IMG/VR virus record: IMGVR_UViG_2681813004_000020
Coordinates: 1 to 12,150 of that record
Source of the DNA: a virus
Taxonomy: Duplodnaviria; Heunggongvirae; Uroviricota; Caudoviricetes
Length of the DNA: 12,150 nucleotides
Direction: 5' to 3' (one strand)
The notes under the pieces were generated by a model. The model saw only the letters and a program-made list of their open reading frames with translations, searched no databases and was not told the DNA's origin. Made by a program: the position numbers and the translations under genes. This document shows positions 1-12,150 of this stretch, one piece after another (positions within the stretch are counted from its first letter, which is position 1; every line of letters starts with the position of its first letter).

Positions 1-1284
1 TTACTTCTTCGCCTCTGCAACCACTTTACTACCCACGCCGCGGTTATTGTATTCCCACATGCGGTTGTAGTTAGTGTCATTCAGATTGCGCTGTATTTCG
101 TCGTTATCATCTACGCTGCCGGTATTACCCGCAAACGGACGATTAGAGATCACCGCATCGGCCCACGGTTTAGCCGTGTTAAAACCTTCGTTGATGGCGC
201 TATCACGGATCACCACCTGACCGTTGGTATTGGCATCAACATCCAGCGAGCGGCCCAGTTGCGCCACACCATCACCGAAAGCATTGAAACGGCTGTTTAC
301 GGCGAGGAAACCGTAGTAAATGTTGGACAGCGTAGCCGGTGCAAACACATACGCTTCTTGCTGAGTACGTGAGTTCACCACGCGGAATTCGGTGTTATCG
401 AACACCACTGCGCCGCGACCAGAAACGATATCCACATCCCCTTCAATGTAGCTGTTGGTCACCAGCGTACGCGGCTGACGGTTGGTTTCCAGACGGTTCT
501 GCACACCGCTGTTGGTGACAAAGAAGGTGTTCTGACGACCGAGAATGTTAACGTTGTTAATCTGTACCTGGTCACCATCAGTACGCAGTGCCACCGCCGG
601 ATGGTTACCTGCATCTACGCTATCGCCCAGCGTGTTTTCGATGGTCAGATTTTGCAGTTGCAGGCCATTGTTTTGTGACCAGAAGACCGCAGAGCAGAGA
701 ACACCGATACTGTCGCTGCGTTTGCTCTGGCAGCTATCGTACATATACCACGCTGGTTTACCTGGCATATATTTGCCGCGCGGGTTGACGTCGTGACGCC
801 AGTCGGCAGGGCTCATGCCACCATCAAGGGAAAGCCCAATCTTCACATCAATCGGTTTTTCACCTGTACCGTACAGAGTAATTCCACCCGGAGCGGCAGG
901 GACATATACCGTTCCCTGATACTCACCAGGCATCACGGCAATATACTGGCGCTTGTTGGTACGCTTGATAATTGCCGCATCTACCGCCGCCTGAATCGTG
1001 GTATGCGTTACACCTTGAGTGCCCGCCGGGCCGACAATAAAGTCAGGTTGCGCAGGCAGGGTAATCGGGGAAGGATTCCACGCTGCAGCACCTGGTGTCA
1101 GGGATGCAAAATAGTGTTGAGCATCGAAATTCTGCGCTTCTTTTGCCGACAGAATCGGGCGAGAAGAGGTACCAGGCGCGGTTTGATCAGAAGGACGTTG
1201 ATCGGGCGGGGTTGAGCTACAGGCGGTCAGCGTCACGCCAAAAGCCAATGCCAGCGCCAGACGGGAAACTGAAAATGTGTTCAC
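1..1284 (-). CDS. ybhC: YbhC, pectinesterase-fold outer-membrane lipoprotein (acyl-CoA thioesterase), the host gene flanking lambda attB
   Basis: 427-codon ORF filling the window start; N-terminus MNTFSVSRLALALAFGVTLTAC has a signal peptide and lipobox Cys; GTG start at 1284..1282, TAA stop at 3..1; sits directly beside the lambda att core, as in E. coli. Confidence 0.85.
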   Translation of the reverse strand: MNTFSVSRLALALAFGVTLTACSSTPPDQRPSDQTAPGTSSRPILSAKEAQNFDAQHYFASLTPGAAAWNPSPITLPAQPDFIVGPAGTQGVTHTTIQAAVDAAIIKRTNKRQYIAVMPGEYQGTVYVPAAPGGITLYGTGEKPIDVKIGLSLDGGMSPADWRHDVNPRGKYMPGKPAWYMYDSCQSKRSDSIGVLCSAVFWSQNNGLQLQNLTIENTLGDSVDAGNHPAVALRTDGDQVQINNVNILGRQNTFFVTNSGVQNRLETNRQPRTLVTNSYIEGDVDIVSGRGAVVFDNTEFRVVNSRTQQEAYVFAPATLSNIYYGFLAVNSRFNAFGDGVAQLGRSLDVDANTNGQVVIRDSAINEGFNTAKPWADAVISNRPFAGNTGSVDDNDEIQRNLNDTNYNRMWEYNNRGVGSKVVAEAKK

Positions 1285-1330
1285 AGGTTGCTCCGGGCTA
1301 TGAAATAGAAAAATGAATCCGTTGAAGCCT

Positions 1331-1420
1331 GCTTTTTTATACTAAGTTGGCATTATAAAAAAGTATTGCTTATCAATTTGTTGCAACGAACAGGTCACTA
1401 TCAGTCAAAATAAAATCATT
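1331..1420. other. attL (B-O-P'): lambda att core plus P' arm with IHF and Int arm-type sites
   Basis: Exact 15-bp core GCTTTTTTATACTAA at 1331-1345; IHF-consensus TATCAATTTGTTG at 1371-1383; arm-type Int sites AGGTCACTAT and CAGTCAAAAT at 1392-1411; int stop follows at 1419. Confidence 0.9.
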
Positions 1421-2492
1421 ATTTGATTTCAATTTTGTCCCACTCCCTGCCTCTGTCATCACGATACTGTGATGCCATGGTGTCCGACTTATGCCCGAGA
1501 AGATGTTGAGCAAACTTATCGCTTATCTGCTTCTCATAGAGTCTTGCAGACAAACTGCGCAACTCGTGAAAGGTCGGCGGATCCCCTTCGAAGGAAAGAC
1601 CTGATGCTTTTCGTGCGCGCATAAAATACCTTGATACTGTGCCGGATGAAAGCGGTTCACGATGAGTAGATGCAATTATGGTTTCTCCGCCAAGAATCTC
1701 TTTGCATTTATCAAGTGTTTCCTTCATTGATATCCCGAGAGCATCAACATGCAATGTTGTAGGGATGGCAATTTTTACGCCTGTTTTGCTTTGCTCGACA
1801 TAAAGATATCCATCTACGATATCAGACCACTTCATTTCGCATAAATCACCAACTCGCTGCCCGGTAACAACAGCCAGCTCCATTGCAAGTCTTAGCCAAC
1901 ATGGTGATGATTCTGCTGCTTGATAAATTTTCAGGTATTCGTCAGCCGTAAGTCTTGATCTCCTTACCTCTGATTTTGCTGCGCGAGTGGCAGCGACCGG
2001 GTTTGTTGTTATATGGCCTTCTTCAGCTATTGCCTCTCGGAATGCATCGCTCAGTGTTGATCTGATTAACTTGGCTGACGCCGCCTTGCCCTCGTCTATG
2101 TATCCACTGAGCATTGCCGCAATTTCTTTTGTGGTGATGTCTTCAAGTGGAGCATCAGGCAGCCCCCTCCTTATTGCTTTAATTTTGCTCATGTAATTTA
2201 TGAGAGTCTTCTGCTTGATTCCTCTGCTGGCGAGGATTTTTTCGTAGCGATCAAGCCATGAATGTAACGTAACAGAATTATCACTGTTGATTCTCGCTGT
2301 CAGAGGCTTGTGTTTGTGTCCTGAAAATAACTCAATGTTGGCCTGTATTGCTTCAGTGATTGCTATCCTCCTGTCTCGGCCTAATCCAAACTCTTTACCC
2401 GTCCTTGGGTCCCTGTAGCAGTAATATCCATTGTTTCTTATATAAAGATTAGGGGGTAAATCCCGGCGCTCATGACTTCGCCTTCTTCCCAT
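1419..2492 (-). CDS. int: Tyrosine integrase, lambda Int type
   Basis: 357-aa ORF starting MGRRRSHERRDLPPNLYIRNNGYYCYRDPRTGKEF, recalled as near-identical to lambda Int; catalytic elements HELR, LLGH and the Tyr in SQYRDD are present; ATG start; adjacent to attL. Confidence 0.95.
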   Translation of the reverse strand: MGRRRSHERRDLPPNLYIRNNGYYCYRDPRTGKEFGLGRDRRIAITEAIQANIELFSGHKHKPLTARINSDNSVTLHSWLDRYEKILASRGIKQKTLINYMSKIKAIRRGLPDAPLEDITTKEIAAMLSGYIDEGKAASAKLIRSTLSDAFREAIAEEGHITTNPVAATRAAKSEVRRSRLTADEYLKIYQAAESSPCWLRLAMELAVVTGQRVGDLCEMKWSDIVDGYLYVEQSKTGVKIAIPTTLHVDALGISMKETLDKCKEILGGETIIASTHREPLSSGTVSRYFMRARKASGLSFEGDPPTFHELRSLSARLYEKQISDKFAQHLLGHKSDTMASQYRDDRGREWDKIEIK

Positions 2493-2688
2493 TTCTGATC
2501 CTCTTCAAAAGGCTACCTGTTACTGGTCGATTTAAGTCAACCTTTACCGCTGATTCGTGGAACAGATACTCTCTTCCATCCTTAACCGGAGGAGGGAATA
2601 TCCTGCATTCGCGCACCCATCGACGAACTGTTTCAAGGCTTCTTGGGCGTCGCTGGCGTGCATTCCACTCCTGAAGTGTCAAGTACAT
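2470..2688 (-). CDS. xis: Excisionase, lambda Xis type
   Basis: 72-aa ORF MYLTLQEWNARQRRPRSLETVRRWVRECRIFPPPV, recalled as matching lambda Xis; overlaps the int start by 23 nt as in lambda. Confidence 0.93.
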   Translation of the reverse strand: MYLTLQEWNARQRRPRSLETVRRWVRECRIFPPPVKDGREYLFHESAVKVDLNRPVTGSLLKRIRNGKKAKS

Positions 2689-2714
2689 CGCAAAGTCTCC
2701 GCAATTACACGCAA
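2665..2714 (-). promoter_or_regulatory. cII-activated pI-type promoter (TTGC-N6-TTGC box) at the xis 5' end
   Basis: Minus-strand TTGCGTGTAATTGC (plus 2701-2714) lies 13 nt upstream of the xis ATG, matching the lambda cII recognition repeat; the implied transcription start falls inside xis, as known for pI. Exact -10 not determined. Confidence 0.55.
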
Positions 2715-2719
2715 GAAAA

Positions 2720-2735
2720 GCCGCATTGATGCGGC
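2720..2735 (-). other. Perfect 7-bp-stem hairpin (GCCGCAT/ATGCGGC) followed by TTTTCTT on the minus strand, just upstream of the cII box; possible weak terminator or RNA processing site
   Basis: Inverted repeat read directly from the sequence; the loop is only 2 nt if fully paired, so terminator function is uncertain. Confidence 0.3.
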
Positions 2736-2794
2736 GATGGTAGGTCTGGATATCATTGAGCCATGAACAGGCCTCATCGAGTGTGAGGCTGTGG

Positions 2795-3139
2795 TTAGTC
2801 CTTTCGTAACTCGCTGATTCTCCTGTAAGTCTCTGGTGCTTTGTTTCCGTGTATCTTCATTTCAGACTTCAACAGAGCAACGAGGGAATCCCATTCGTTG
2901 AGGATGCCTTTGAATGCCGGAACGCGCTTTGCAACCTTGTCGAATGAATCTCTGATTTCTGGAATCTTCTCAACAAGTGCAACGCATCGTCGGAAGTCTG
3001 CTGCGTCATGGGGAGCGCCGAAGTGATGACCATAGATATTCTTTTTCAGGCCACATGCGATTGAGGCAAGAGTTGCGCTACTGATGCCAACATCGCCAGT
3101 CGATTGCCATTTCAAAACCTTCATAGACAAATCTGACAT
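2795..3139 (-). CDS. Hypothetical protein, 114 aa, int/xis-proximal accessory gene
   Basis: ATG at 3139..3137 preceded by GGAGACAAGAA (Shine-Dalgarno GGAG); TAA stop at 2795; no family recognised. Confidence 0.6.
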   Translation of the reverse strand: MSDLSMKVLKWQSTGDVGISSATLASIACGLKKNIYGHHFGAPHDAADFRRCVALVEKIPEIRDSFDKVAKRVPAFKGILNEWDSLVALLKSEMKIHGNKAPETYRRISELRKD

Positions 3140-3167
3140 TTCTTGTCTCCAATAAAAAAAACCTCCA

Positions 3168-3335
3168 TCAGGCGGCTTGGTGTTCTTTCAGTTCTTCAAT
3201 TCGAATATTGGTTACGTCTGCATGTGCTATCTGCGCCCATATCATCCAGTGGTCATAGCAGTCATTGATGTTCTCTGCTTCGATAACTCTGTTGAATGGT
3301 TCTCCATTCCATTCACCTGTGACTCGGAAGTGCAT
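3168..3335 (-). CDS. Hypothetical small protein, 55 aa (MHFRVTGEWNGEPFNRVIEAENINDCYDHWMIWAQIAHADVTNIRIEELKEHQAA)
   Basis: Found by manual translation (absent from the ORF track); ATG at 3335..3333 preceded by GGAGATGATAA; TGA stop at 3170..3168. Confidence 0.5.
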   Translation of the reverse strand: MHFRVTGEWNGEPFNRVIEAENINDCYDHWMIWAQIAHADVTNIRIEELKEHQAA

Positions 3336-3373
3336 TTATCATCTCCATAAAACAAAATCCGCCGTAGCGAGTT

Positions 3374-3404
3374 CAGATAAAAGAAATCCCCGCGAGTGCG
3401 AGGA
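3374..3404 (-). terminator. Intrinsic terminator candidate directly after the ASCH-protein stop
   Basis: Minus strand TCCTCGC-ACTC-GCGGGGA (7-bp stem with one G-U pair, 4-nt loop; plus 3387-3404) followed by TTTCTTTTATCTG (plus 3374-3386). Confidence 0.5.
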
Positions 3405-3407
3405 TTG

Positions 3408-3692
3408 TTATTCATTGCCGATATTCACCTTTATCGCGAACACCTTTACCGGTTTATCACCGAAGTGCGGATGTGTGATTGTCTTGATTTCATATCCGTC
3501 ATACGGAACATCAATTCTGCGGCTGGAATCGTCGCGCTTCGGATATCCCTTTGTGATAATCAGGCGGTCATACTCCCGGAACATAATTCGCTTATTCCAA
3601 TAGTCATTACACAGGCGATACTCTTCCGTTTTCTCTCCTCGAATCATGGCATCGAAGTATTCACCTTTGACGGCAAGTTGTAGGTTAGCCAC
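3408..3692 (-). CDS. ASCH-domain protein, 94 aa
   Basis: N-terminal LQLAVKGEYFDAMIRGEKTEEYR contains the ASCH signature GxKxxExR (G19-K21-E24-R26); GTG start at 3692..3690 preceded by AGGAGG with 7-nt spacing; overlaps the upstream stop by 8 nt. Confidence 0.7.
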   Translation of the reverse strand: MANLQLAVKGEYFDAMIRGEKTEEYRLCNDYWNKRIMFREYDRLIITKGYPKRDDSSRRIDVPYDGYEIKTITHPHFGDKPVKVFAIKVNIGNE

Positions 3693-3987
3693 GGTTAACC
3701 TCCTGCGGAGTAGCCTTTACAAGCACTGGTGCAAATCCATCTTCATTAAGGTTATGAATATAGACTTCTGTTCTCCTGCGCTCTTCAACGTTTAATATTG
3801 TTTCTGGATCATAAACCCATACTTTCATTCGACTATTCCATGAAGAAATCGCTTCAGATCTAGTTCGTTTTTCTGGTCCTTGGGCACCACATTTGCATGA
3901 CACATAGCGCATTTTCCCTCTGATACTGAATGAGTATCCGATGTTAAGCACAGTGGAACCACAGAATGGGCAGCGATATAGATTCAT
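3685..3987 (-). CDS. Lar-family-like zinc-ribbon protein (restriction alleviation family) with a ~45-aa C-terminal extension, 100 aa
   Basis: N-terminal LYRCPFCGSTVL...VSCKCGAQGPEKRTRSEAISSWNSR matches the recalled Lar-family pattern CPFCG...C-x-CGA-x-GP...EAI-x-x-WN-x-R; ATG preceded by AAGGTGGA; ATGA stop/start overlap with the upstream gene. Confidence 0.55.
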   Translation of the reverse strand: MNLYRCPFCGSTVLNIGYSFSIRGKMRYVSCKCGAQGPEKRTRSEAISSWNSRMKVWVYDPETILNVEERRRTEVYIHNLNEDGFAPVLVKATPQEVNRG

Positions 3988-4601
3988 AAATCATCCACCT
4001 TAGGCGCAGCTGAGACAGCAACATTCCAGAACTCAGAAAACATATTGTATGCACCAGATAGATTGGAAGTAGCATACCCTCCAAGCTCACTTCTAATCTG
4101 AACGGCTCTCATCATTTCCGGGGTTAACTCCTTCGGCACCATAACCCAACCATCCGGAGTTACCGGAGAGTTGCCACCGGGAATATTTTCCGGAATATTT
4201 TGTTGTGCGTTTTGTGGTTGTTCTGATTTACCCTGAAGCATGGCGGCGCGGCAGGCGTTCCAGCCAGCTGTTCGCCCAAGCGCGTAAACTTCAGATGGAT
4301 CAAGATAATCAATGTCATGCCCGTCCTCATCGTCGTTCTCAGGTAATGCAGCAGGTACTACCGGTACTGGCGGAGCGGCGTAGACCTCAATAATTCCATT
4401 ATCAATAGGCCATTCTCCATCCTTGAGGTAGTCACTTGTGCCGTCAACTTGCTGTTCTGCAATGTGGAATGCACCTATTGGTTTTGCTTCCAGCGATGCC
4501 AGAGCAATCCGTGCCAGTTCCATTTGTTCGCCACTAGTAAGTCCGTTATCAAGCGGGGATTTAATGAACAATTCGATACGTTCTTTAGTGATAGTGCTCA
4601 T
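3984..4601 (-). CDS. Hypothetical protein, 205 aa
   Basis: Start set to the internal ATG at 4601..4599 (MSTITKERIELF...), which has an AGGAG SD 7 nt upstream and lies 1 nt after the upstream TGA stop; the 33-codon extension in the ORF track overlaps the neighbouring gene and has no SD. Confidence 0.6.
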   Translation of the reverse strand: MSTITKERIELFIKSPLDNGLTSGEQMELARIALASLEAKPIGAFHIAEQQVDGTSDYLKDGEWPIDNGIIEVYAAPPVPVVPAALPENDDEDGHDIDYLDPSEVYALGRTAGWNACRAAMLQGKSEQPQNAQQNIPENIPGGNSPVTPDGWVMVPKELTPEMMRAVQIRSELGGYATSNLSGAYNMFSEFWNVAVSAAPKVDDL

Positions 4602-4602
4602 A

Positions 4603-5160
4603 TCACTCTCCTTTGATGCGAATGCCAGCTGCGCTTGCTGATTCTTCATATGCGCGTTTAGCAGCGTTAAGGATTGCTGCCAGTGGCGTATAGCCGCCAT
4701 CCATTCGGATTGTGTTGTGGATGCCAGCCATTGTGTCGCGCAATTTGCTGTGGCTAGCAGACAGTTCTGCTATGCACTTCTCTGCGGCATCGGCTCGATC
4801 TTTTTCACGCTGGAACATTTTGTGAGTGCGGTCTATAGCTTCGATTCGTGCCGCTGATGTCTTCTGCACGGCTTCAAGCTCAACACGCAGCTTCCCAACC
4901 GTAAGAGCAATATCCTCGTTCTTCTGGTCGCGGCGTTTGATGTATTGCTGGTTTCTTTCCCGTTCATCCAGTAGTGCCAGCACGGTTTCTGGCCCGGTCA
5001 GAAATTTGAAGGCGTTGAGCGCATCAATATCCACACCGTAATCCTTAAGTTCCTGTTCAGTTAACAAATCATCATCAACTGGCAACATTAACAGGCGTTC
5101 CATTGCCGGAATTGCACGCTCTGCCGCCTCACGCAGTGCCTGATAGTCAATCTTGCTCAT
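4603..5160 (-). CDS. ea22: Ea22-like protein, 185 aa
   Basis: Internal LLDERERNQQYIKRRDQKNEDIALTVGKLRVELE and C-terminal AGIRIKGE resemble lambda Ea22 as recalled; AAAGGAG SD 8 nt upstream; ATGA overlap with the upstream stop. Confidence 0.5.
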   Translation of the reverse strand: MSKIDYQALREAAERAIPAMERLLMLPVDDDLLTEQELKDYGVDIDALNAFKFLTGPETVLALLDERERNQQYIKRRDQKNEDIALTVGKLRVELEAVQKTSAARIEAIDRTHKMFQREKDRADAAEKCIAELSASHSKLRDTMAGIHNTIRMDGGYTPLAAILNAAKRAYEESASAAGIRIKGE

Positions 5161-5714
5161 TGGATGACTCCTTTACGAAGCTGTTCGGCGATATCTTCGA
5201 GAATGCCATCAGAGAATGAACGGTCAAAATCGCCTTCCGGCGCATTGGCCATAAACTCAGTAGAGGTAAGAATCATCCGGGCAATATCAGCGGCGTTCTT
5301 CGCAGTATCATCAATAAAACCAGCTTCCCAGGCAGCCAGCATTCTGTTCGCCACAAAGTAAGCGCCCTCCTTGCGTGCTTCAGTCTTCACTTCAGCCAGA
5401 AAAGCATCGGTGGCTGGGGTTTCAGTAATATCATCTTCCCATTCGCTAAACTCCTCACGACAAAAGTCATTAAATTCCTTCTCAGATTGCTTAAGCGAGG
5501 AATTTTCAGCAGCCATCTTCGCGCATTTAGCCTCAAGGTTATCAATCGTGATTCCAGCAGAACGACACTCCCGCAACGCCGTTTCTAGTTTTGATTCAAG
5601 TTCACCGAACTTACGGACAAGATATTCATCGTTTGTTTCGTCAACCTTTAAATCACTTGGGATGCATTTACCTTTCAGAAAACCATCCATCTCAATTAGT
5701 GTCATTTGTTTCAT
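5157..5714 (-). CDS. Hypothetical acidic protein, 185 aa (start at [12 protein letters not shown])
   Basis: ORF track starts at a GTG (5732..5730); the first ATG (5714..5712) forms an ATGA overlap with the upstream stop and is preferred; a second ATG lies at 5705. Confidence 0.55.
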
Positions 5715-5875
5715 TTCTTCCCACTCCGCCACATCGCATTCAGATATTTGTTGTCATTAACAGAACCGAAACTCTTTCTCTTAAGCAATTCCTCTCTCGA
5801 TGGCATTGGCTTTGCGCGTTGGCGAATAATCATTTCTGCCGGAAGAATGCCGGGATTGTATGCAAGTCCTCTCAT
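5711..5875 (-). CDS. Hypothetical small protein, 54 aa ([54 protein letters not shown])
   Basis: ATG at 5875..5873 preceded by GAGGAA; an in-frame upstream ATG at 5893 would give 60 aa; start lies inside copy 1 of the 109-bp tandem duplication. Confidence 0.45.
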
Positions 5876-6049
5876 GGTAAATTCCTCAGTCATTACTGAT
5901 AGCGCCATAGCGTGAGCGGTAATTACGCAGGCGCGGGTCAATTTCTGCCGGAAGAATGCCGGGATTGTATGCAAGTCCTCTCATGGTAAATTCCTCAGTC
6001 ATTACTGATAGCGCCATAGCGTGAGCGGTAATTACGCAGGCGCGGGTCA
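5832..6049. repeat. Perfect tandem duplication, 2 x 109 bp (5832-5940 and 5941-6049), with 5-bp microhomology ATTTC continuing at 6050-6054
   Basis: Base-by-base comparison: the two units are identical; the flanks differ (C at 5831, AGGG at 6055). Confidence 0.95.
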
Positions 6050-6288
6050 ATTTCAGGGAAGTGGGTATATGTGGCTTTGCGGAATGGTCGGATTGATGTC
6101 TGGTAAATTCGCTCGCGTTCTTCTTTCTCTGCAAGCCATATACAATGGCGAAATTCCTTTTCCTCTTTCGTTTCCTGCGGTAGCGACATTATCCGATCGT
6201 AGTTTTTTCTGAATTTATCCAGCACCTCCGATACGGAATTGCCGGAACAGCGGCGCGCGTCATCCGCACCATACAGAGGCGCTGGCAT
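5995..6288 (-). CDS. Hypothetical protein A1, 97 aa (MPAPLYGADDARRCSGNSVSEVL...), paralog of the 8937-9119 gene
   Basis: ATG at 6288 preceded by CAGGAGAAAAC; stop lies inside copy 2 of the 109-bp duplication; first 30 nt identical to the paralog. Confidence 0.6.
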   Translation of the reverse strand: MPAPLYGADDARRCSGNSVSEVLDKFRKNYDRIMSLPQETKEEKEFRHCIWLAEKEERERIYQTSIRPFRKATYTHFPEIDPRLRNYRSRYGAISND

Positions 6289-6304
6289 GGTTTTCTCCTG
6301 TTGA

Positions 6305-6853
6305 TTATTTAGCTAACTTTTTCCAGATCGCTGAAACGTATTTGGCTTGGTGAATGGCATCATCAAGCGCGTTGTGGCGAGTTCCTTTGAATGGCATATC
6401 TCGCTTAGGGTCTAATCCTATTACCTTCCCAAGTTCGACGATTGTTCTTACGTCGCGGTCATTCCACCACTGCCACGGAACTGGCTGCCCTGTCAGCGAA
6501 TAACTGTTTCGGAGAATAACGCAGTCAAATGATGCTCCATTCCCCCAAACCTGAACGAATTTGTGGTTAGCGTTCTTTATGATGAATTCAGATAACCATG
6601 AAAGAGCCGTTGAAAGCTCCTGAGTGTTGCTGGTTAGCGATTTTCTGGCTTCTTCACTCTGTTCCAGCCACCATAAAATCGTTGAAGCGTCAGGACGCGC
6701 CCGATATCGCATTGATGACTCAAGCGAGATATTTACCGAGAACTCTTCTCCTGTTTCTCCGGTATTCGGGTCAAAGAATACCGCCCCAATAGAAATAACT
6801 GGCGCATATGGCCCGTTGCCCATTGTTTCAAGGTCAACCATTAAGTGATTCAT
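6305..6853 (-). CDS. DnaQ-like DEDDh 3'-5' exonuclease, 182 aa
   Basis: Exo I motif VDLETMG near the N-terminus and H-x4-D motif HNALDDA near the C-terminus; AAGGA SD; lies next to ssb as in many prophage recombination modules. Confidence 0.8.
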   Translation of the reverse strand: MNHLMVDLETMGNGPYAPVISIGAVFFDPNTGETGEEFSVNISLESSMRYRARPDASTILWWLEQSEEARKSLTSNTQELSTALSWLSEFIIKNANHKFVQVWGNGASFDCVILRNSYSLTGQPVPWQWWNDRDVRTIVELGKVIGLDPKRDMPFKGTRHNALDDAIHQAKYVSAIWKKLAK

Positions 6854-6861
6854 GTAAGTCC

Positions 6862-7368
6862 TTAAATTGCGTGAATAGCGTGACGAGGGAAGGGGAGAGT
6901 TACTGGTGCAAAGGGTATATCGTCGTCAAAATCCATCGGAGGTTCGTTGTGTTGTGCTGGTGATGATTGCTGCTGTGGCTTCTGTGATTGCCTGCTGGCT
7001 GCTTGTTGTTTGCTGTCGCCAATTCCGCCAAGCATTTGCATCACGCCATTAATTCCGACATGAACCTCGGTTGTGTAACGGTCTTGCCCTGACTGGTCTT
7101 TCCACTTTCTGGTTCTCAGCATTCCCTCGAAATAAATCTGATCACCTTTTTTCACATACTGCCCCACGACCTCAGCCAGTTTCCCGGATACAGCAACACG
7201 ATGCCATTCAGTCAATTCCTTTTGCTCGCCAGTATTTTTATCTCGCCATTGTTCTGACGTGGCTATTGTCAGGTTAGCGAACGCTGTACCTGATGGTGAG
7301 TATCGAACTTCCGGGTCTTGTCCTACCCGACCAAGGATAATCACCTTATTTACGCCTCTGCTTGCCAT
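6862..7368 (-). CDS. ssb: Single-stranded DNA-binding protein (SSB) with an atypical 15-aa extension after the DDDIPF tip
   Basis: N-terminal [23 protein letters not shown]...[11 protein letters not shown] matches the E. coli SSB OB fold as recalled; Gln/Pro-rich linker; [11 protein letters not shown], then the frame continues [15 protein letters not shown] before TAA. Confidence 0.9.
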
Positions 7369-8076
7369 TTATGCCGCCTGTTTTAGTTCGTTAACTCTGA
7401 TGTTCATTACCTGAACGCATTTAGCCTGCGCCTCCTCATTGCCAGCCATTAATTGCCAGTCACGCTGATAACGCTCGATGAGTTTTTTCTTGTCAGTTTC
7501 TGTTGACGCATAATCGCTGAAGTCTTTCAGGATTTGTTCGCAGTCAACCGATGGAGATTTCTGGTTGGTATTTTCTGGTGATGGTTTGTTATCTGATGCT
7601 GGTATTGCCCATCCCGGCAGCGATGGAGGGAGCCAGTAAAATCCTGTTCCATCCTTGAGTTTTGCCCTGTGCCATCCCTGCTTTTTATCGAGAGATGTTT
7701 GTGCGAAACCTTCCTCAAGGTTATACAGATACCGACCGATTCCCCACTGAACGGCAGCGCGCTTCATTGCACCGGAACGACCACCTTTGACGGCTTCTAC
7801 CTGCGTGTTTTCAGCAGCATCCCATTTGGTTACCCATTCGGAATCAATCTTTATTGATATGCCGCATTCAACGCCGCCGTTGTTGGGAATATCGCGGTAT
7901 TCATTGCGCCATCCTGCTTTGCCGCAAACATCGTCCAGGCGTTTCATGATTGCCCGGTTCGTTACATAAGCCAGCACCATAGCCCACACTTTGCCATCGC
8001 GTGTTTTACCGCTTTGCTGTATTCGCCATTCGATATCTTCAGGGCTGAATGGCTCATCGAATTTATTCAAATCCAT
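7369..8076 (-). CDS. Rad52-type single-strand annealing protein, 235 aa
   Basis: Motif GAMKRAAVQWGIGRYLYNL resembles the Rad52 signature GLKRALRSFGNALG; GAGGTGA SD; directly upstream of ssb. Confidence 0.65.
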   Translation of the reverse strand: MDLNKFDEPFSPEDIEWRIQQSGKTRDGKVWAMVLAYVTNRAIMKRLDDVCGKAGWRNEYRDIPNNGGVECGISIKIDSEWVTKWDAAENTQVEAVKGGRSGAMKRAAVQWGIGRYLYNLEEGFAQTSLDKKQGWHRAKLKDGTGFYWLPPSLPGWAIPASDNKPSPENTNQKSPSVDCEQILKDFSDYASTETDKKKLIERYQRDWQLMAGNEEAQAKCVQVMNIRVNELKQAA

Positions 8077-8084
8077 AATTCACC

Positions 8085-8255
8085 TCAGAATGGACACGGC
8101 CCAAGGAAATAACGCTGATTTAATACTTCAACTCGGGACAAATTAAGGCATACCCGCATTCCTTCGCGGTCGCCATTATGGCGATACCAGAGAGCTTTCT
8201 GCGTGTACATGCGTCTCTGTAACTTGCTCTCCTTCACTGTGGTTGCAAGTGACAT
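8085..8255 (-). CDS. Hypothetical small protein, 56 aa (MSLATTVKESKLQRRMYTQKALWYRHNGDREGMRVCLNLSRVEVLNQRYFLGPCPF), paralog of the 10416-10604 gene
   Basis: Manual translation; GAAGGAGATATTC-ATG (strong SD); stop overlaps the SD of the Rad52-type gene; aligns over its length with the 62-aa protein in the other module (shared L-x-R, A-x-W/Y-x-R-x-x-GD, CL, N-x-R-x-FL, terminal PF). Confidence 0.55.
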   Translation of the reverse strand: MSLATTVKESKLQRRMYTQKALWYRHNGDREGMRVCLNLSRVEVLNQRYFLGPCPF

Positions 8256-8334
8256 GAATATCTCCTTCGTTACCGATTAATTCTTTCATCTGACGAATGA
8301 ATTCTTCGTCTGACCAGTTATCTGTAAAACTCAT
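8176..8334 (-). CDS. Alternative small ORF, 52 aa (MSFTDNWSDEEFIRQMKELIGNEGDIHVTCNHSEGEQVTETHVHAESSLVSP), overlapping the 56-aa gene in another frame
   Basis: ATG forms an ATGA overlap with the kil-like stop, mirroring the junction in the other module, but has a poor SD and overlaps the better-supported 56-aa gene by 80 nt. Confidence 0.2.
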   Translation of the reverse strand: MSFTDNWSDEEFIRQMKELIGNEGDIHVTCNHSEGEQVTETHVHAESSLVSP

Positions 8335-8483
8335 TTCCTGCGATACCACGGATGGTTGATAGCTGATTTCATCGCTTTATTTGCTTCAAGCCACATTTTT
8401 GAATCACCAATAAATCTGGCTATTACTGCTTTGTTCTGTGCAGCACGAAGCATCTGGTGATTGATGGCTATTTCATTGCGCAT
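8331..8483 (-). CDS. Kil-like small protein (paralog), 50 aa
   Basis: MRNEIAINHQMLRAAQNKAVIARFIGDSKMWLEANKAMK... aligns with the other module's Kil (IATFIGDEKMFREAVEA versus IARFIGDSKMWLEANKA); GGAGG SD 5 nt upstream; start overlaps the 3' end of the cIII-like gene. Confidence 0.6.
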   Translation of the reverse strand: MRNEIAINHQMLRAAQNKAVIARFIGDSKMWLEANKAMKSAINHPWYRRK

Positions 8484-8602
8484 AACGCCTCCAGTTGTTT
8501 CTTTGCTGCTCTGATTAATTGTTTAACTCGGCGTGATAATTCAGATTCGTGCGGGTAGAAAGCGGACATGACGCCGCTACCCGCGAGCTGAAAGTGCATC
8601 AT
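8468..8602 (-). CDS. CIII-like small protein (divergent paralog), 44 aa
   Basis: MMHFQLAGSGVMSAFYPHESELSRRVKQLIRAAKKQL parallels CIII (AGxx...SESLLERITRKLRDGWKRL); TAAGGAG SD 5 nt upstream; immediately downstream of repeat copy 1; same cIII-then-overlapping-kil arrangement. Confidence 0.6.
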   Translation of the reverse strand: MMHFQLAGSGVMSAFYPHESELSRRVKQLIRAAKKQLEALCAMK

Positions 8603-8664
8603 GGGTAACTCCTTATATTTGATTGCATAACGAAAACGCCTCGAGTGAAGCGTTATTGGTATGC

Positions 8665-8692
8665 ATATAAAAAAGCCCTCACACTGGAGGGC
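8665..8692 (-). terminator. Intrinsic terminator inside repeat copy 1
   Basis: Minus strand GCCCTC-CAGTGT-GAGGGC followed by TTTTTTATAT; a second weaker hairpin AACGCTTC-ACTC-GAGGCGTT then TTCGTT lies at plus 8635-8654. Confidence 0.6.
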
Positions 8693-8785
8693 AAAGAAGA
8701 TTTCCAATAATCAGAACAAGTCGGCTCCTGTTTAGTTACGAGCGACATTGCTCACATAGCAGACTCGCAAATCTGCTATAGGTGC

Positions 8786-8944
8786 TTATTCGCATCGCAT
8801 GACAACATCAAATTTTTCGAGATTACTTTGTCGCAACAATCCTTCTTCTACGCGGTCAGCTTTTCTATAATTATCAAATTCGAAATGTTTAATTACTTCT
8901 TTCGTTTCTCGCTCTATAACTTCAACAATGTATTTCTTATTCAT
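8786..8944 (-). CDS. Hypothetical small protein, 52 aa (MNKKYIVEVIERETKEVIKHFEFDNYRKADRVEEGLLRQSNLEKFDVVMRCE), copy 1
   Basis: Manual translation; ATG overlaps the stop of the upstream gene (GATGAATAA); weak SD; duplicated exactly at 11027-11185. Confidence 0.4.
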   Translation of the reverse strand: MNKKYIVEVIERETKEVIKHFEFDNYRKADRVEEGLLRQSNLEKFDVVMRCE

Positions 8945-9119
8945 CGTTCTCATCTTTTAACGCGAGTTGTATATCGCGTCGGTACATCCGTTCTGCTTTT
9001 GTTTCTGGTGGCAGATCAATAAACGTGTCGAAAATGTTTTTGATATTTTCCAGCACCTCCGCCTTGGAGCTACCGGAGCAATTGCGCGGGTCATCCGCAC
9101 CATACAGAGGCGCTGGCAT
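8937..9119 (-). CDS. Hypothetical protein A2, 60 aa (MPAPLYGADDPRNCSGSSKAEVL...), paralog of the 5995-6288 gene
   Basis: ATG at 9119; first 30 nt identical to A1, then diverging; TAA stop overlaps the start of the 52-aa ORF. Confidence 0.55.
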   Translation of the reverse strand: MPAPLYGADDPRNCSGSSKAEVLENIKNIFDTFIDLPPETKAERMYRRDIQLALKDENDE

Positions 9120-9142
9120 AATGGGAGCCTTATTTTCAGTAA

Positions 9143-9730
9143 TCAGAAAGGAGGGTAATCGTTCTGGCTGTAACCATAATCATCTGCATGATTCTGGCTT
9201 ACGTTTTTAGAGCGATTGTCTTTATCTTTGAGATTGGCAACCATGTTGGCGATAGTTTCTGGTTGCTTGCCTTCTGCCTTTTCTTTAAGGGTTTGACCTG
9301 TTTGTGCAATAAACGGGATGCGTATTTCCATCTGGTAGCTGTCTGCGCCAGTCTTTTTGTTTGTGGTTAATACTTTCTGGAGCACTAACCCGATTTTCTT
9401 TCCATGAAATTCAGGTGCAACAAATTTACTGGCGGAAACCATATGCTGCGTTAATTGTCCAATCCCGGCACACCCCATCATGGCGTGAACGACATTTGCG
9501 CCAAATTTGTTTTCCGTGCCGTCATTTTTCTGAACACAGACGCTAAGATATTGGATTTTACGTCCGTCGTCGGATTCGCCAGAAAACTCAATAAATTTGG
9601 CTCCTTTTTCTGATTGCTTTAGTTCTGCTTCAGTAATGGTAATGATATGAGCACCAGTTTCGTTAATAAAACCACCTTGCCCTGCGGTCAGTGCTGCTTC
9701 TTCGTTATAAGTAAAAATCACGTTGCTCAT
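9143..9730 (-). CDS. Putative cognate ssDNA-binding partner of Sak4 (DUF669-like?), 195 aa, with an SSB-like C-terminal tail DYPPF
   Basis: ATGA overlap with the Sak4 stop; C-terminus ...HADDYGYSQNDYPPF resembles the acidic SSB tip DDDIPF; family assignment by context and tail only. Confidence 0.5.
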   Translation of the reverse strand: MSNVIFTYNEEAALTAGQGGFINETGAHIITITEAELKQSEKGAKFIEFSGESDDGRKIQYLSVCVQKNDGTENKFGANVVHAMMGCAGIGQLTQHMVSASKFVAPEFHGKKIGLVLQKVLTTNKKTGADSYQMEIRIPFIAQTGQTLKEKAEGKQPETIANMVANLKDKDNRSKNVSQNHADDYGYSQNDYPPF

Positions 9731-10407
9731 GCGGCGTTTTCCTTAATTTGATGAACATTATTGATGCCGTAGTAATCACAAACAGTGGCATCGACGAAAG
9801 AGAGATCGTTATCAATCTCATTGGAATCAAACATTCCCATTGGGGATTTAACAGTGTCTGCACCGTTGTTTTTTGTGGTGAAAAAGAACTGGTCATCACG
9901 GGTAAGGGTGCGAAGAACTATAGTAAACATGCCTTCGACAGTGATTTTCTCGTCCAGCATTTTGCCGATAGTCTTCATTTTCACACGCCCCATAGGAGTT
10001 TCTTCGGTGTGCGCAAGAAAATAGACTCTCAGGTCATCAGGCGCATCCTGCGCAGCCTTAATGACCTCCCATGCGTGACGGCCTATCTCAGTAAATTTAT
10101 CAAACGATTTTTCTTCTGAGCGGCGCATAAACTCATTGCTCATCACATACTGGAAGTCATCAACAATAACGATTCTTTTCCCGTATTCGTGAGCACGCTT
10201 AATTACGGCAACTATTACGTCCCATTTGTCAGTGGTAACTACGGTTCCTTTTTTTGCTCTGGCATCCCATGCAAGCCAGTCTTTTGATTTAAATGGTAGC
10301 GGCTTGCCTATTGGTTTTATAAGTATTGCTTCCTCTGGATTGATATTTCTCATGCTGGTTGATTTTCCGGTGCCAGACTCACCGAGTATTAATGTCGCAG
10401 TTCCCAT
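9727..10407 (-). CDS. Sak4-like RecA-core P-loop ATPase (AAA_24-type phage recombination protein), 226 aa
   Basis: Walker A GESGTGKS at residues 9-16, Walker B-like IVIVDD; size and position downstream of kil, where lambda has its Red recombination genes; GAGG SD. Confidence 0.7.
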   Translation of the reverse strand: MGTATLILGESGTGKSTSMRNINPEEAILIKPIGKPLPFKSKDWLAWDARAKKGTVVTTDKWDVIVAVIKRAHEYGKRIVIVDDFQYVMSNEFMRRSEEKSFDKFTEIGRHAWEVIKAAQDAPDDLRVYFLAHTEETPMGRVKMKTIGKMLDEKITVEGMFTIVLRTLTRDDQFFFTTKNNGADTVKSPMGMFDSNEIDNDLSFVDATVCDYYGINNVHQIKENAA

Positions 10408-10415
10408 AATTTGCC

Positions 10416-10604
10416 TCAGAATGGTAATTCGGATGGGGAGGAAAGAAACTCGCGCTCATTCATGCGCTCTCTTTGTGCCTGCCATAAACAAAGTTGTTTC
10501 TTTGATTTATCTCCCGCTTTACGCCAGTAACGAGCCTCAGCAATGTGATATTCTCTTTTTAATCGACTTAACTCTGGAGTTTTCGCCAGTTCTACCGGAA
10601 TCAT
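10416..10604 (-). CDS. Hypothetical small protein, 62 aa (MIPVELAKTPELSRLKREYHIAEARYWRKAGDKSKKQLCLWQAQRERMNEREFLSSPSELPF)
   Basis: Internal ATG with GGAGG SD and an ATGA overlap with the kil stop; paralogous to the 56-aa protein at 8085-8255. Confidence 0.5.
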   Translation of the reverse strand: MIPVELAKTPELSRLKREYHIAEARYWRKAGDKSKKQLCLWQAQRERMNEREFLSSPSELPF

Positions 10605-10714
10605 TTTGACCTCCATTTCCTGTAGGCTTCGACGGCCTCACGAAACATCTTTTCATCGCCAATAAAAGTGGCGATAGTGAATTTAGTCTGGATAGCCATA
10701 AGTGTTTTATCCAT
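10601..10714 (-). CDS. kil: Kil (FtsZ-targeting host-killing peptide), 37 aa
   Basis: MDKTLMAIQTKFTIATFIGDEKMFREAVEAYRKWRSK; ATG overlaps the last codons of cIII as in lambda; the ORF-track version includes an unsupported N-terminal extension. Confidence 0.6.
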   Translation of the reverse strand: MDKTLMAIQTKFTIATFIGDEKMFREAVEAYRKWRSK

Positions 10715-10847
10715 TTTTTGGAACTCCTGGCTGATTAAGTATGTCGATAAGGCGTTTCCATCCGTCACGTAATTTACGTGTGATTCGCTCAAGTAAAGAT
10801 TCGGAAGGGCAGCCAGCAACAGGCCACCCTGCAATGGCATATTGCAT
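10707..10847 (-). CDS. cIII: CIII (FtsH/HflB protease inhibitor), lambda type, 46 aa
   Basis: MQYAIAGWPVAGCPSESLLERITRKLRDGWKRLIDILNQPGVPKNG matches lambda CIII as recalled over its whole length; AAGGAG SD 7 nt upstream; lambda CIII is recalled as about 8 residues longer. Confidence 0.8.
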   Translation of the reverse strand: MQYAIAGWPVAGCPSESLLERITRKLRDGWKRLIDILNQPGVPKNG

Positions 10848-10905
10848 GGTGTGCTCCTTATTTATACATAACGAAAACGCCTCGAGTGAAGCGTTATTGG
10901 TATGC

Positions 10906-10933
10906 ATATAAAAAAGCCCTCACACTGGAGGGC
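10906..10933 (-). terminator. Intrinsic terminator inside repeat copy 2
   Basis: Same GCCCTC-CAGTGT-GAGGGC plus U-tract as in copy 1. Confidence 0.6.
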
Positions 10934-11026
10934 AAAGAAGATTTCCAATAATCAGAACAAGTCGGCTCCTGTTTAGTTACGAGCGACATTGCTCACATAG
11001 CAGACTCGCAAATCTGCTATAGGTGC

Positions 11027-11185
11027 TTATTCGCATCGCATGACAACATCAAATTTTTCGAGATTACTTTGTCGCAACAATCCTTCTTCTACGCGGTCAG
11101 CTTTTCTATAATTATCAAATTCGAAATGTTTAATTACTTCTTTCGTTTCTCGCTCTATAACTTCAACAATGTATTTCTTATTCAT
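11027..11185 (-). CDS. Hypothetical small protein, 52 aa, copy 2 (one extra in-frame ATG upstream)
   Basis: Identical to 8786-8944; here preceded by GGGGAAGA, and the ATG overlaps the stop of the 98-aa gene. Confidence 0.4.
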   Translation of the reverse strand: MNKKYIVEVIERETKEVIKHFEFDNYRKADRVEEGLLRQSNLEKFDVVMRCE

Positions 11186-11481
11186 CATTCTTCCCCAAGA
11201 GCTTTTCTGATTGCTGCAAGACCTTTATTAACAGCTCCATACCATTCTGGATATGTTGTCTTTGTTCTATTTTTGGTTTGCTTAAGTAATAACTGAAGTG
11301 CTTCGAGAAGGTCAGGTGCTGCCGCTATTAGATTGGCATCTTCAATGCATTGAACTTCCTCACAGATTGCAATATACGAACGCCAGCCTGCGCCATTTTC
11401 AAGTGAGTCTGCCTGGATGATTTTAATCTCATCGCCATCCATCATTATTTCCCACTTACCTTCAGTACCTTTAAATTCCAT
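11185..11481 (-). CDS. Hypothetical protein, 98 aa
   Basis: ATG at 11481 preceded by AGAGGCTAAC; acidic N-terminal half; no family recognised. Confidence 0.6.
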   Translation of the reverse strand: MEFKGTEGKWEIMMDGDEIKIIQADSLENGAGWRSYIAICEEVQCIEDANLIAAAPDLLEALQLLLKQTKNRTKTTYPEWYGAVNKGLAAIRKALGEE

Positions 11482-11492
11482 GTTAGCCTCTG

Positions 11493-11520
11493 TTGTTTAT
11501 GCCAAAAATAAAGGCCGACT
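11493..11520 (-). terminator. Intrinsic terminator (tL1-like position) overlapping the stop of the 107-aa gene
   Basis: Minus strand AAGGCCG-AATAGT-CGGCCTT (7-bp stem) followed by ATTTTTGG. Confidence 0.6.
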
Positions 11521-11842
11521 ATTCGGCCTTATCTACATTCCTGAACCAAACGCAGATCGGACCGTCTTCTGTATCGTGAATCGAACCGACAAACCATCCT
11601 TCTCCATCTGGCATGCTTGGCTCCCATCCACTGATGTTTTGATTCCCATCTTCAAAATACGCGTCAATTACCGTTTGATTGTTGTCGTTTTCCATTTCAA
11701 CAATTGATGATTCAATGCCATGCTGCTTGCAGAAAGATCTGAACTCATCAGCTGAAATTACCTCTCTATCCCCAAACAGGTTGGCGTATTCTGGGTGCGT
11801 CCAGTAGCCATCCTCGCTTCGCTCTACTACTAATGCTTCCAT
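11519..11842 (-). CDS. Highly acidic Trp-rich protein of unknown function, 107 aa, first gene after N
   Basis: ATG at 11842 preceded by GAGGTGAGAT; about 24 Asp/Glu against 6 Lys/Arg; four Trp; no family recognised. Confidence 0.65.
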   Translation of the reverse strand: MEALVVERSEDGYWTHPEYANLFGDREVISADEFRSFCKQHGIESSIVEMENDNNQTVIDAYFEDGNQNISGWEPSMPDGEGWFVGSIHDTEDGPICVWFRNVDKAE

Positions 11843-11850
11843 ATCTCACC

Positions 11851-12150
11851 TCAAATAAGTGGTTTGCTGCCTAATTTCATTTTCTGGCGACCAACACAAG
11901 TCACACCCATTTCACTGCGTGGCTTGCGGTAGTAAATACGGTTCTGTTTACGCTCTACTTCTTCTGCCTTCTTGCAGCGAAGGCTTCCGAGTGATGCTGC
12001 TTTATCTGCTCTGACGCAACCAGAGAGCTTTAGCGCAATTTTTCGCGCCAGTCGCTGCTCTTGCATTGCCTGTTCACGTTGAGCCTGTCTGCGTGCTCTG
12101 CGGCGATTTCTGGCGTTATCGTCAGCCAGATATGTAATGACTACTGTCAT
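11851..12150 (-). CDS. N: N-like transcription antitermination protein (phage 21-type C-terminus); the ATG sits exactly at the window edge, so the true start may lie further upstream
   Basis: Arg-rich motif NARNRRRARRQAQREQ near the N-terminus; C-terminus RKPRSEMGVTCVGRQKMKLGSKPLI parallels lambda N ...SKPGERGITCSGRQKIKGKSIPLI; position at the head of the leftward operon. Confidence 0.8.
   Translation of the reverse strand: MTVVITYLADDNARNRRRARRQAQREQAMQEQRLARKIALKLSGCVRADKAASLGSLRCKKAEEVERKQNRIYYRKPRSEMGVTCVGRQKMKLGSKPLI

Follow-up and report, generated by a model that had tools for sequence, protein, structure and literature searches.

A probable recent tandem merodiploid of the cIII-to-abc2 segment in the early-left operon of a lambdoid prophage

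Why should a single early operon of a lambdoid prophage carry two different homologous-recombination systems? The window analyzed here, a stretch of 12,150 nucleotides (nt; positions 1 to 12,150 of IMG/VR record IMGVR_UViG_2681813004_000020), is the left arm of a lambdoid prophage integrated beside Escherichia coli ybhC (1-1284). Its early-left operon lies on the minus strand and is long, extending from the N gene (11851-12150) down towards int. A preliminary description of this DNA had recognized a Sak4-like ATPase with an SSB-like partner upstream of a Rad52-type annealing protein, a canonical SSB and a 3'-5' exonuclease, and had asked whether the combination reflects redundancy, cooperation or a transitional state. 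The recombination (Rec) module of lambdoid phages has been described as one contiguous cluster with a single annealing protein (PMC12315714). The operon does not conform to this description: it contains two strand-annealing protein genes, which are separated by a truncated abc2 gene (abc2'), a small open reading frame (small orf), terminators, cIII, kil and small genes. Our comparative analysis indicates that the region is probably a recent merodiploid of the early-left cIII-to-abc2 segment, that is, a transitional state of module exchange and not a selected two-system design.

The operon holds two complete tandem versions of the cIII-to-abc2 segment, which is normally present in a single copy. 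Alongside the two annealing proteins, cIII, kil, an hkaM-like gene and abc2 are duplicated. The five open reading frames (ORFs) named in the preliminary description are all present on the minus strand at the coordinates listed below. Overlooked were the cIII, kil, hkaM-like and abc2 genes that accompany each module, the truncation of the upstream abc2 and a perfect 320-nt direct repeat. The picture of one slot holding two systems was therefore wrong; what the operon contains is two whole cIII-to-abc2 alleles, placed in tandem, as we argue, by a recent rearrangement. The upstream allele, set A, runs from a small orf and tL2-like hairpins through cIII-a, kil-a, the hkaM-like gene, Sak4 and SSB-2 to the truncated abc2:

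10707-10847, minus strand: cIII-a, 97.8% identical to HK620 cIII (PHROG 550)
10601-10714, minus strand: kil-a, 97.3% identical to HK620 kil (PHROG 2461)
10416-10604, minus strand: hkaM-like gene of set A, 98.4% identical to HK620 HkaM (PHROG 1723)
9727-10407, minus strand: Sak4, intact, 226 amino acids, by homology a RecA-core ATP-dependent annealase of the HkaL type (PHROG 2872, E=3.9e-108)
9143-9730, minus strand: Sak4-cognate SSB (HkaK, or 'SSB-2'), intact, 195 amino acids (PHROG 743, E=5.9e-67; 99.0% identical to HK620 HkaK)
8937-9119, minus strand: truncated abc2 (abc2'), 58 Abc2 codons, then 2 new ones before a stop; scar left by the rearrangement

Set B follows with a small orf and hairpins, cIII-b, kil-b, two small genes (one of them hkaM-like), the Rad52-type protein, SSB, the exonuclease and a full-length abc2, its small genes being assigned by PHROG 2055/2123/1723:

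8468-8602, minus strand: cIII-b (Pfam cIII, E=7.8e-30)
8331-8483, minus strand: kil-b, 100% identical to mEp235 kil
8176-8349, minus strand: small gene of PHROG 2123
8085-8255, minus strand: hkaM-like gene of set B (PHROG 1723)
7369-8076, minus strand: Rad52-family strand-annealing protein, intact, 235 amino acids (PF04098; 100% identical to mEp235 gp32)
6862-7368, minus strand: canonical OB-fold SSB ('SSB-1'), intact, 168 amino acids (PF00436, E=1.6e-36; 100% identical to mEp235 SSB)
6305-6853, minus strand: Rv2179c-like, DnaQ-like DEDDh 3'-5' exonuclease, intact, 182 amino acids (PF16473, E=3.8e-73; 97.8% identical to the mEp235 exonuclease)
5995-6288, minus strand: full-length abc2 (anti-RecBCD), 97 amino acids (PF11043, E=5.6e-63), which closes set B

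The 9727-10407 protein of set A matches PHROG 2872 over residues 1-220 and Pfam AAA_24 just above threshold (E=5.1e-7; 30.2 bits versus a cutoff of 27). It carries the Walker A motif GESGTGKS at residues 9-16 and the Walker B motif IVIVDD at residues 79-84, and it is 99.6% identical to HK620 HkaL and 100% identical to its counterpart in JEP4. The protein is thus a Sak4-like RecA-core ATPase, as had been proposed, and does not belong to a non-recombination ATPase family. A PDB sequence search with Sak4 gave no match. HK620 Sak4 (HkaL) is an ATP-dependent annealase, and its cognate SSB stimulates it through the C-terminal tail of that SSB (PMC5928155), and the 99.6% identity suggests ATP-dependent single-strand annealing by the Sak4 of the window as well. 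The adjacent SSB-like partner is a homologue of HkaK; its gene overlaps the Sak4 stop, its C-terminal tail is acidic/aromatic (...NDYPPF) and the Sak4/SSB-2 pairing recurs in 80/80 Sak4 loci. RefSeq labels close homologues of SSB-2 as DUF669. This Pfam family was not recovered for 9143-9730 even at E<=10, where only a spurious GnsAB match appeared, and no family was found at E<=0.01; the assignment given here rests on PHROG 743 and the identity to HkaK.

All proteins of set A, abc2' aside, are full length, and they are 97-100% identical to those of HK620/JEP4. The gene order is that of the HK620 module (cIII-kil-hkaM-hkaL/Sak4-hkaK/SSB-hkaJ/abc2; functional type 'HK75', Zheng et al. 2025), with 97-99.6% protein identity for cIII, kil, HkaM, Sak4 and SSB-2. 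Unlike in HK620, the abc2 of set A is cut after codon 58 and fused to a foreign small orf, and the set as a whole lies upstream of a second complete Rec segment.

Set B proved equally recognizable. Rad52_Rad22 (PF04098) matches residues 4-136 of the 7369-8076 protein (E=5e-26; 91.9 bits versus a cutoff of 20.3), and PHROG 1097 matches at E=3.5e-130, which confirms a Rad52-type annealing protein and keeps it within the Rad52 superfamily; a PDB sequence search with it gave no match. The 6862-7368 protein is the canonical SSB that had been predicted, as its PF00436 match shows, and it scores 166.9 bits against TIGR00621 (cutoff 53.95). Apart from SSB, the NCBIfam profile search returned nothing. 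PF16473 covers the full length of the 6305-6853 protein, with DLE at residues 7-9 and HNALDD at residues 160-165, in agreement with a DEDDh 3'-5' exonuclease. The complete abc2 at 5995-6288 matches PF11043 at positions 1-97 and residues 1-97 of P22 Abc2 (PDB 8B1T; E=2.8e-57), and includes the conserved C-terminus and P68. For the five proteins first named, the profile searches therefore bore out AAA_24, Rad52_Rad22, SSB and the DnaQ-like exonuclease, and failed for DUF669.

The proteins of set B are all full length and 82-100% identical to those of mEp235, with about 98% for Abc2; the regulatory and accessory genes (8085-8602) span the same range of 82-100%. The order corresponds to the module of the mEp235/mEpX2/Sf6/epsilon34 type (Rad52-type strand-annealing protein, SSB-1, DnaQ-like exonuclease, Abc2; type 'ES18'), which occupies the same site, between cIII/kil and DUF2737 plus the ea genes. 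The module itself is no different; what sets the window apart is the extra Sak4 set before it and a 109-nt tandem duplication after it.

In SSB-1, the DFDDDIPF tail, which is normally terminal, is followed by 15 extra residues (window 6862-6909). The extension is identical in mEp235 and may alter partner binding via the tail.

The C-terminal ~105 residues of the Rad52-type protein (window 7369-7690) align at 29% identity with an ERF-family protein, of which they match the C-terminal 56%; this protein is from an O26 prophage that uses the same attachment site. The Rad52-type and ERF proteins have different annealing cores and a shared C-terminal domain, which may be a partner-interaction domain. 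Matches to 'Erf' obtained by tblastn in Rad52 loci were considered as a second annealing gene and rejected, as they fall inside this shared C-terminal domain of the Rad52-type gene.

The HkaM-like small protein (56-62 amino acids; PHROG 1723 'recombinase') directly precedes both the Sak4 gene (10416-10604) and the Rad52-type gene (8085-8255). It has no Pfam or NCBIfam match, and the two copies are 33% identical to each other. It is a conserved accessory common to otherwise unrelated Rec modules.

How did the two sets come to lie in one operon? The boundary between them and the sequence that heads each set bear on this question:

8941-8950, minus strand: abc2/small-orf joint, microhomology AGAA-n-GA, from a three-way comparison of the window with the IMG/VR loci L006 and L113
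10867-11186, no strand: upstream copy of the repeat, with small orf 11027-11185/8 and hairpins at 10916-10933 and 10876-10895; 96% identical to the HK620 tL2A/B region
8626-8945, no strand: downstream copy of the repeat, with small orf 8786-8944 and terminator-like hairpins at 8675-8692 and 8635-8654

The ORF of abc2' has 60 codons and matches Pfam Anti-RecBCD_p2 at positions 1-59 of 97 only, so that P68 and the C-terminal region are missing. On the transcribed strand, the donor-type abc2 (L006) reads ...GATGAGAA-G-GA-CCGAAC..., the recipient type (L113), at the overlap of the orf98 stop with the small-orf start, reads ...GGGGAAGAA-T-GA-TGAATAAG..., and the window reads ...GATGAGAA-C-GA-TGAATAAG... 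The truncated gene follows the L006 abc2 exactly to GATGAGAA and then diverges into the recipient small orf. This three-way comparison places the crossover within a 4+2-nt microhomology (AGAAnGA). Base 8946 is C, where the donor type has G and the recipient type T, and matches neither parent. The ATG of the small orf overlaps the new stop; in the upstream copy it overlaps the stop of orf98 in a similar way. A search for the exact 55-residue version of the small orf, which starts inside abc2', found nothing, because gene callers use a downstream ATG.

In the cryo-EM structure of P22 Abc2 with RecBCD (PDB 8B1T), residues 3-52 form the ordered helices that contact RecC; the truncation removes P68 (the PpiB site) and the C-terminus. 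Since the RecC-contacting residues are kept in the fragment, RecC binding is conceivable, and the truncated Abc2 (residues 1-58) might still bind RecC.

Candidate parental types could be identified. The prophage L113, which has a single copy of the repeat and lacks set A, is 99.9% identical to the window over 3760-8950 and 10867-11936 (about 6 single-nucleotide polymorphisms (SNPs) in about 6.3 kb), including the 1,070-nt stretch that borders set A on its upstream side (10867-11936), which differs by 1 SNP. L006 matches the inserted 8951-10866 at 1916/1916 nt and then continues into a full-length abc2 of 98 amino acids. Of the phages compared here, mEp235 and JEP4 have both been isolated and are viable.

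The perfect 320-nt direct repeat (8626-8945 and 10867-11186) heads each set and brackets set A, with 0 differences between its copies. Within it, a 128-nt block (8626-8753 and 10867-10994) contains two terminator-like hairpins, e.g. GCCCTCCAGTGTGAGGGC followed by T6, and corresponds to HK620 tL2A/B. Ahead of cIII, this block is 95-100% conserved whether the phage is of the Sak4 or the Rad52 type, and it therefore constitutes a natural homologous linker; judged by its conservation, it looks like a linker for Rec-module exchange by homologous recombination. Two contigs from other draft genomes that carry the Sak4 set end at the repeat: L017 (IMGVR_UViG_2541047931_000004) at its boundary (window 11185) and L006 (IMGVR_UViG_2681813004_000019) inside it (10907). 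These contig ends suggest that the segment is multi-copy in the L017 and L006 genomes and a frequent assembly break point.

The tandem form appears to be a singleton. The region 6305-11200 was not found at >=80% coverage in one place in any of 5,426 complete E. coli genomes or 50,697 phage records, among which one set or the other occurs in thousands of records, and in neither collection was the junction interval 8780-9125 covered. Searches for the exact sequence of the 29-nt joint found no copy in 185,579 species-representative genomes, IMG/VR or the JGI metagenome collection, and the exact truncated Abc2 product occurs on one contig (AOTC01000251.1) among ~15 billion proteins. We also surveyed 80 Sak4 loci with their flanks and 80 Rad52-type loci for co-occurrence of the two families, as the preliminary description had proposed, and found no locus with both. 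The Sak4 loci have SSB-2 in 80/80 and abc2 in 70/80 cases, and a Rad52, Redβ, Erf or RecT homologue in 0/80; Sak4, SSB-2, a second abc2, two repeat copies or the joint were found in 0/80 Rad52-type loci. Among 246 Enterobacteriales lambdoid phages with Rec modules, three carry a pair of genes for one function, and in no case is that function strand annealing (Zheng et al. 2025; PMC12315714). Carrying both systems is indeed unusual, with no case in the 160 related loci, the complete genomes and phage records or the 246 published Rec modules.

Taken with the observed anatomy, breakpoints, parental types, intact genes and singleton status of the locus, these results support the transitional state, one of the three options raised at the outset; redundancy and cooperation found no positive support. 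The transitional state is favored by the abc2 scar, the microhomology joint, the perfect repeat, a 99.9% identical sister without the insert, the 100% identical donor-type sequence and the lack of a second example. Since the insert shows 0 differences from the donor type, and the repeat copies 0 differences from each other, the event must be very recent. The tandem form is probably a one-off, short-lived intermediate of gene-module swapping.

In the scenario that we favor, the recipient would have been a prophage of the mEp235/L113 type with orf98, the small orf, tL2 terminators, cIII, kil, and the hkaM-like, Rad52-type, SSB, DnaQ-like exonuclease and abc2 genes. It would have acquired 1,916 nt of a phage of the HK620/JEP4 type, beginning with cIII and including kil, hkaM, Sak4, SSB-2 and abc2 as far as codon 58. 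Of the two ends of the acquired DNA, one would lie in shared sequence, the small orf and the near-universal tL2 'linker', which now form the perfect 320-nt direct repeat. The other would be an illegitimate joint at 4+2-nt microhomology, connecting abc2 codon 58 to the overlap of the orf98 stop and the small-orf start. Unequal crossover, Campbell-type insertion of a 2,241-bp circle and template switching would fit equally well as routes. Phage annealing proteins are able to recombine sequences whose homology is diverged or very short (PMC2327257, PMC3945230).

Upon induction, N-modified RNA polymerase would be expected to read through both terminator clusters from pL, so that both sets would be co-transcribed and both annealing systems made. 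Sak4 and its cognate SSB would act by ATP-dependent annealing, as for HK620, and the Rad52-type protein, together with SSB-1 and the exonuclease, would cooperate with Abc2-modified RecBCD. The arrangement is predicted to be unstable: a crossover between the 320-nt repeats would remove the Sak4 set and give back the L113 form, and a rarer exchange between the two abc2 5' ends, which share a 30-nt perfect run and are 63% identical overall, would remove the Rad52 set instead and so finish the module replacement.

Several points weigh against this interpretation. The arrangement rests on one draft assembly contig, AOTC01000251.1, and a second singleton duplication (109 nt) on the same contig could reflect either a recombination-prone lineage or assembly problems. 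The direction of change, with either an insertion or L113 as a deletion derivative, would take more than the sequence to prove, although the truncation of abc2 marks the tandem form as derived. Expression, the activity of both modules and the instability are inferences. The contig ends 227 nt past the window, so that the inducibility of the prophage is presumed.

Could the tandem have arisen in a single step from two whole phages? An unequal crossover would have joined a Sak4-type left part (immunity, N to abc2 codon 58) to the right part of a resident prophage (small orf to int). The switch of N to HK620/JEP4-like sequence at ~11937-11958 is in line with such an event, as are the Sak4-type loci L014, L017, L049 and L052, which carry orf98 and/or the small orf upstream of cIII. 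The sequence just before set A speaks against it: 10867-11936 matches the Rad52-type L113 at 99.9%, whereas the best Sak4-type loci reach 91-99.5%, and over parts only. We regard a single crossover as possible if rather unlikely; it is no more than a sub-variant of the favored explanation with the same end product, since the insert is flanked on either side by sequence that matches one and the same prophage type at 99.9%.

The main rival reading is that the tandem does not exist, and that an assembler threaded an HK620-type and an mEp235-type prophage from different sites through the shared 320-nt repeat. In its favor are a single draft contig which ends just past N and stems from the short-read era, a perfect 320-nt repeat inside this contig and another odd duplication nearby. 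In other assemblies, moreover, contigs of the donor type (L006 and L017) are broken at the repeat or within it. However, threading through a repeat cannot fuse abc2 codon 58 to the small orf in a joint that shares only 4+2 nt with either parent, far below the overlap or k-mer of an assembler, and base 8946 is found in neither parent type. The joint of the 109-nt duplication is likewise novel sequence that must be present in the reads. Moreover, the contig is listed from 2 samples. An assembly artefact is therefore improbable.

Less probable still is an evolved and selected dual-recombination system in which the modules cooperate or cover different substrates, for example with the nuclease-less Sak4/SSB-2 using the DnaQ-like exonuclease, or with two annealases hedging against host defences. 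In its favor, every gene of the two sets is intact and all point the same way within one operon, lambdoid Rec components are combinatorially promiscuous (PMC12315714), and the truncated Abc2 retains the helices that contact RecC. Such a system is difficult to reconcile with a joint and two junction-specific products that are restricted to the source contig, and the zero divergence of the insert from the donor type and between the repeat copies leaves no time for selection. Furthermore, cIII and kil are duplicated as passengers, the truncation scar inside a gene persists, the perfect 320-nt repeat would delete the extra set at appreciable frequency, and two annealing proteins are lacking from all 160 related loci and 246 surveyed phages. 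That the tandem is a functional configuration with both annealing systems expressed and jointly advantageous, be it on different substrates, as a backup when a host defence targets one of them or with an N-terminal Abc2 fragment still binding RecC, is highly improbable; if true, it would be the first case of natural use of two strand-annealing proteins by a lambdoid element.

Seen as a recent merodiploid, the locus can be compared with doublings that are already known. In lambdoid phages, one Rec function is doubled in HK639 (GamL and MuGam), Brookers (SSB-1 and SSB-1c) and PSTNGR2lys (Exo and HNH) (PMC12315714). Like the window, these represent rare functional doublings in the early-left recombination region; unlike it, they double an accessory function, the annealing protein staying single in each, and no description of them speaks of the entire cIII-to-abc2 segment being repeated in tandem. 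In the limited sense of having two strand-annealing proteins, the locus is a new structural variant, and not a new kind of system. All of its components are known, several of them 99-100% identical to proteins of isolated phages, and no new biochemistry is involved.

With regard to models of lambdoid mosaic joints (Hendrix/Juhala; Martinsohn 2008; De Paepe 2014), the locus has both signatures, a linker boundary and a microhomology joint inside a gene. Published mosaic joints were usually inferred from old, 'cleaned-up' mosaics at gene boundaries, whereas the product in the window is unresolved: both alleles, the truncated gene and the perfect flanking repeats are kept, and candidate parental types are available at 99.9-100% identity. 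It provides an apparently unique natural snapshot of lambdoid module swapping before clean-up, bears on the debate about whether illegitimate or homologous recombination makes mosaic joints, and suggests an 'insert, then delete' route of module exchange. It also calls for caution in genome scans, as the co-occurrence of normally exclusive systems can mean a very recent rearrangement and not a designed combination.

The surroundings of the two sets complete the map of the window, which is identical, with 0 mismatches, to part of the NCBI draft contig AOTC01000251.1 (36,774 bp; assembly GCA_001447405.1):

11851-12150, minus strand: N antiterminator (PHROG 271, E=4.8e-37), which runs off the window; start of the early-left operon at pL
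11519-11842, minus strand: orf107, one of the PHROG 1372/1273 pair with orf98; upstream of the repeat, recipient-type, 99.9% identical to L113
11185-11481, minus strand: orf98, one of the PHROG 1372/1273 pair with orf107; recipient-type, 99.9% identical to L113; its stop, GAAGAATGA, gives one side of the microhomology
5832-6049, no strand: perfect 109-nt tandem duplication spanning the 3' end of abc2 and the 5' end of the DUF2737 gene; one copy in L113
2470-2688: xis
1419-2492: int

A mosaic boundary lies inside N at ~11937-11958, with the sequence to its left 99.9% identical to L113 and that to its right 99.5% identical to HK620/JEP4. The N-terminal (nut-specific) part of N thus has the same phage type as the inserted Sak4 set.

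The 109-nt duplication, the joint of which lies at a GAAAT microhomology, creates a chimeric ORF of 32 amino acids that fuses DUF2737 residues 1-14 to Abc2 residues 80-97 (WP_187640473.1) and is recorded on the source contig only. It is a second, independent microhomology-mediated singleton rearrangement within 3 kb of the first.

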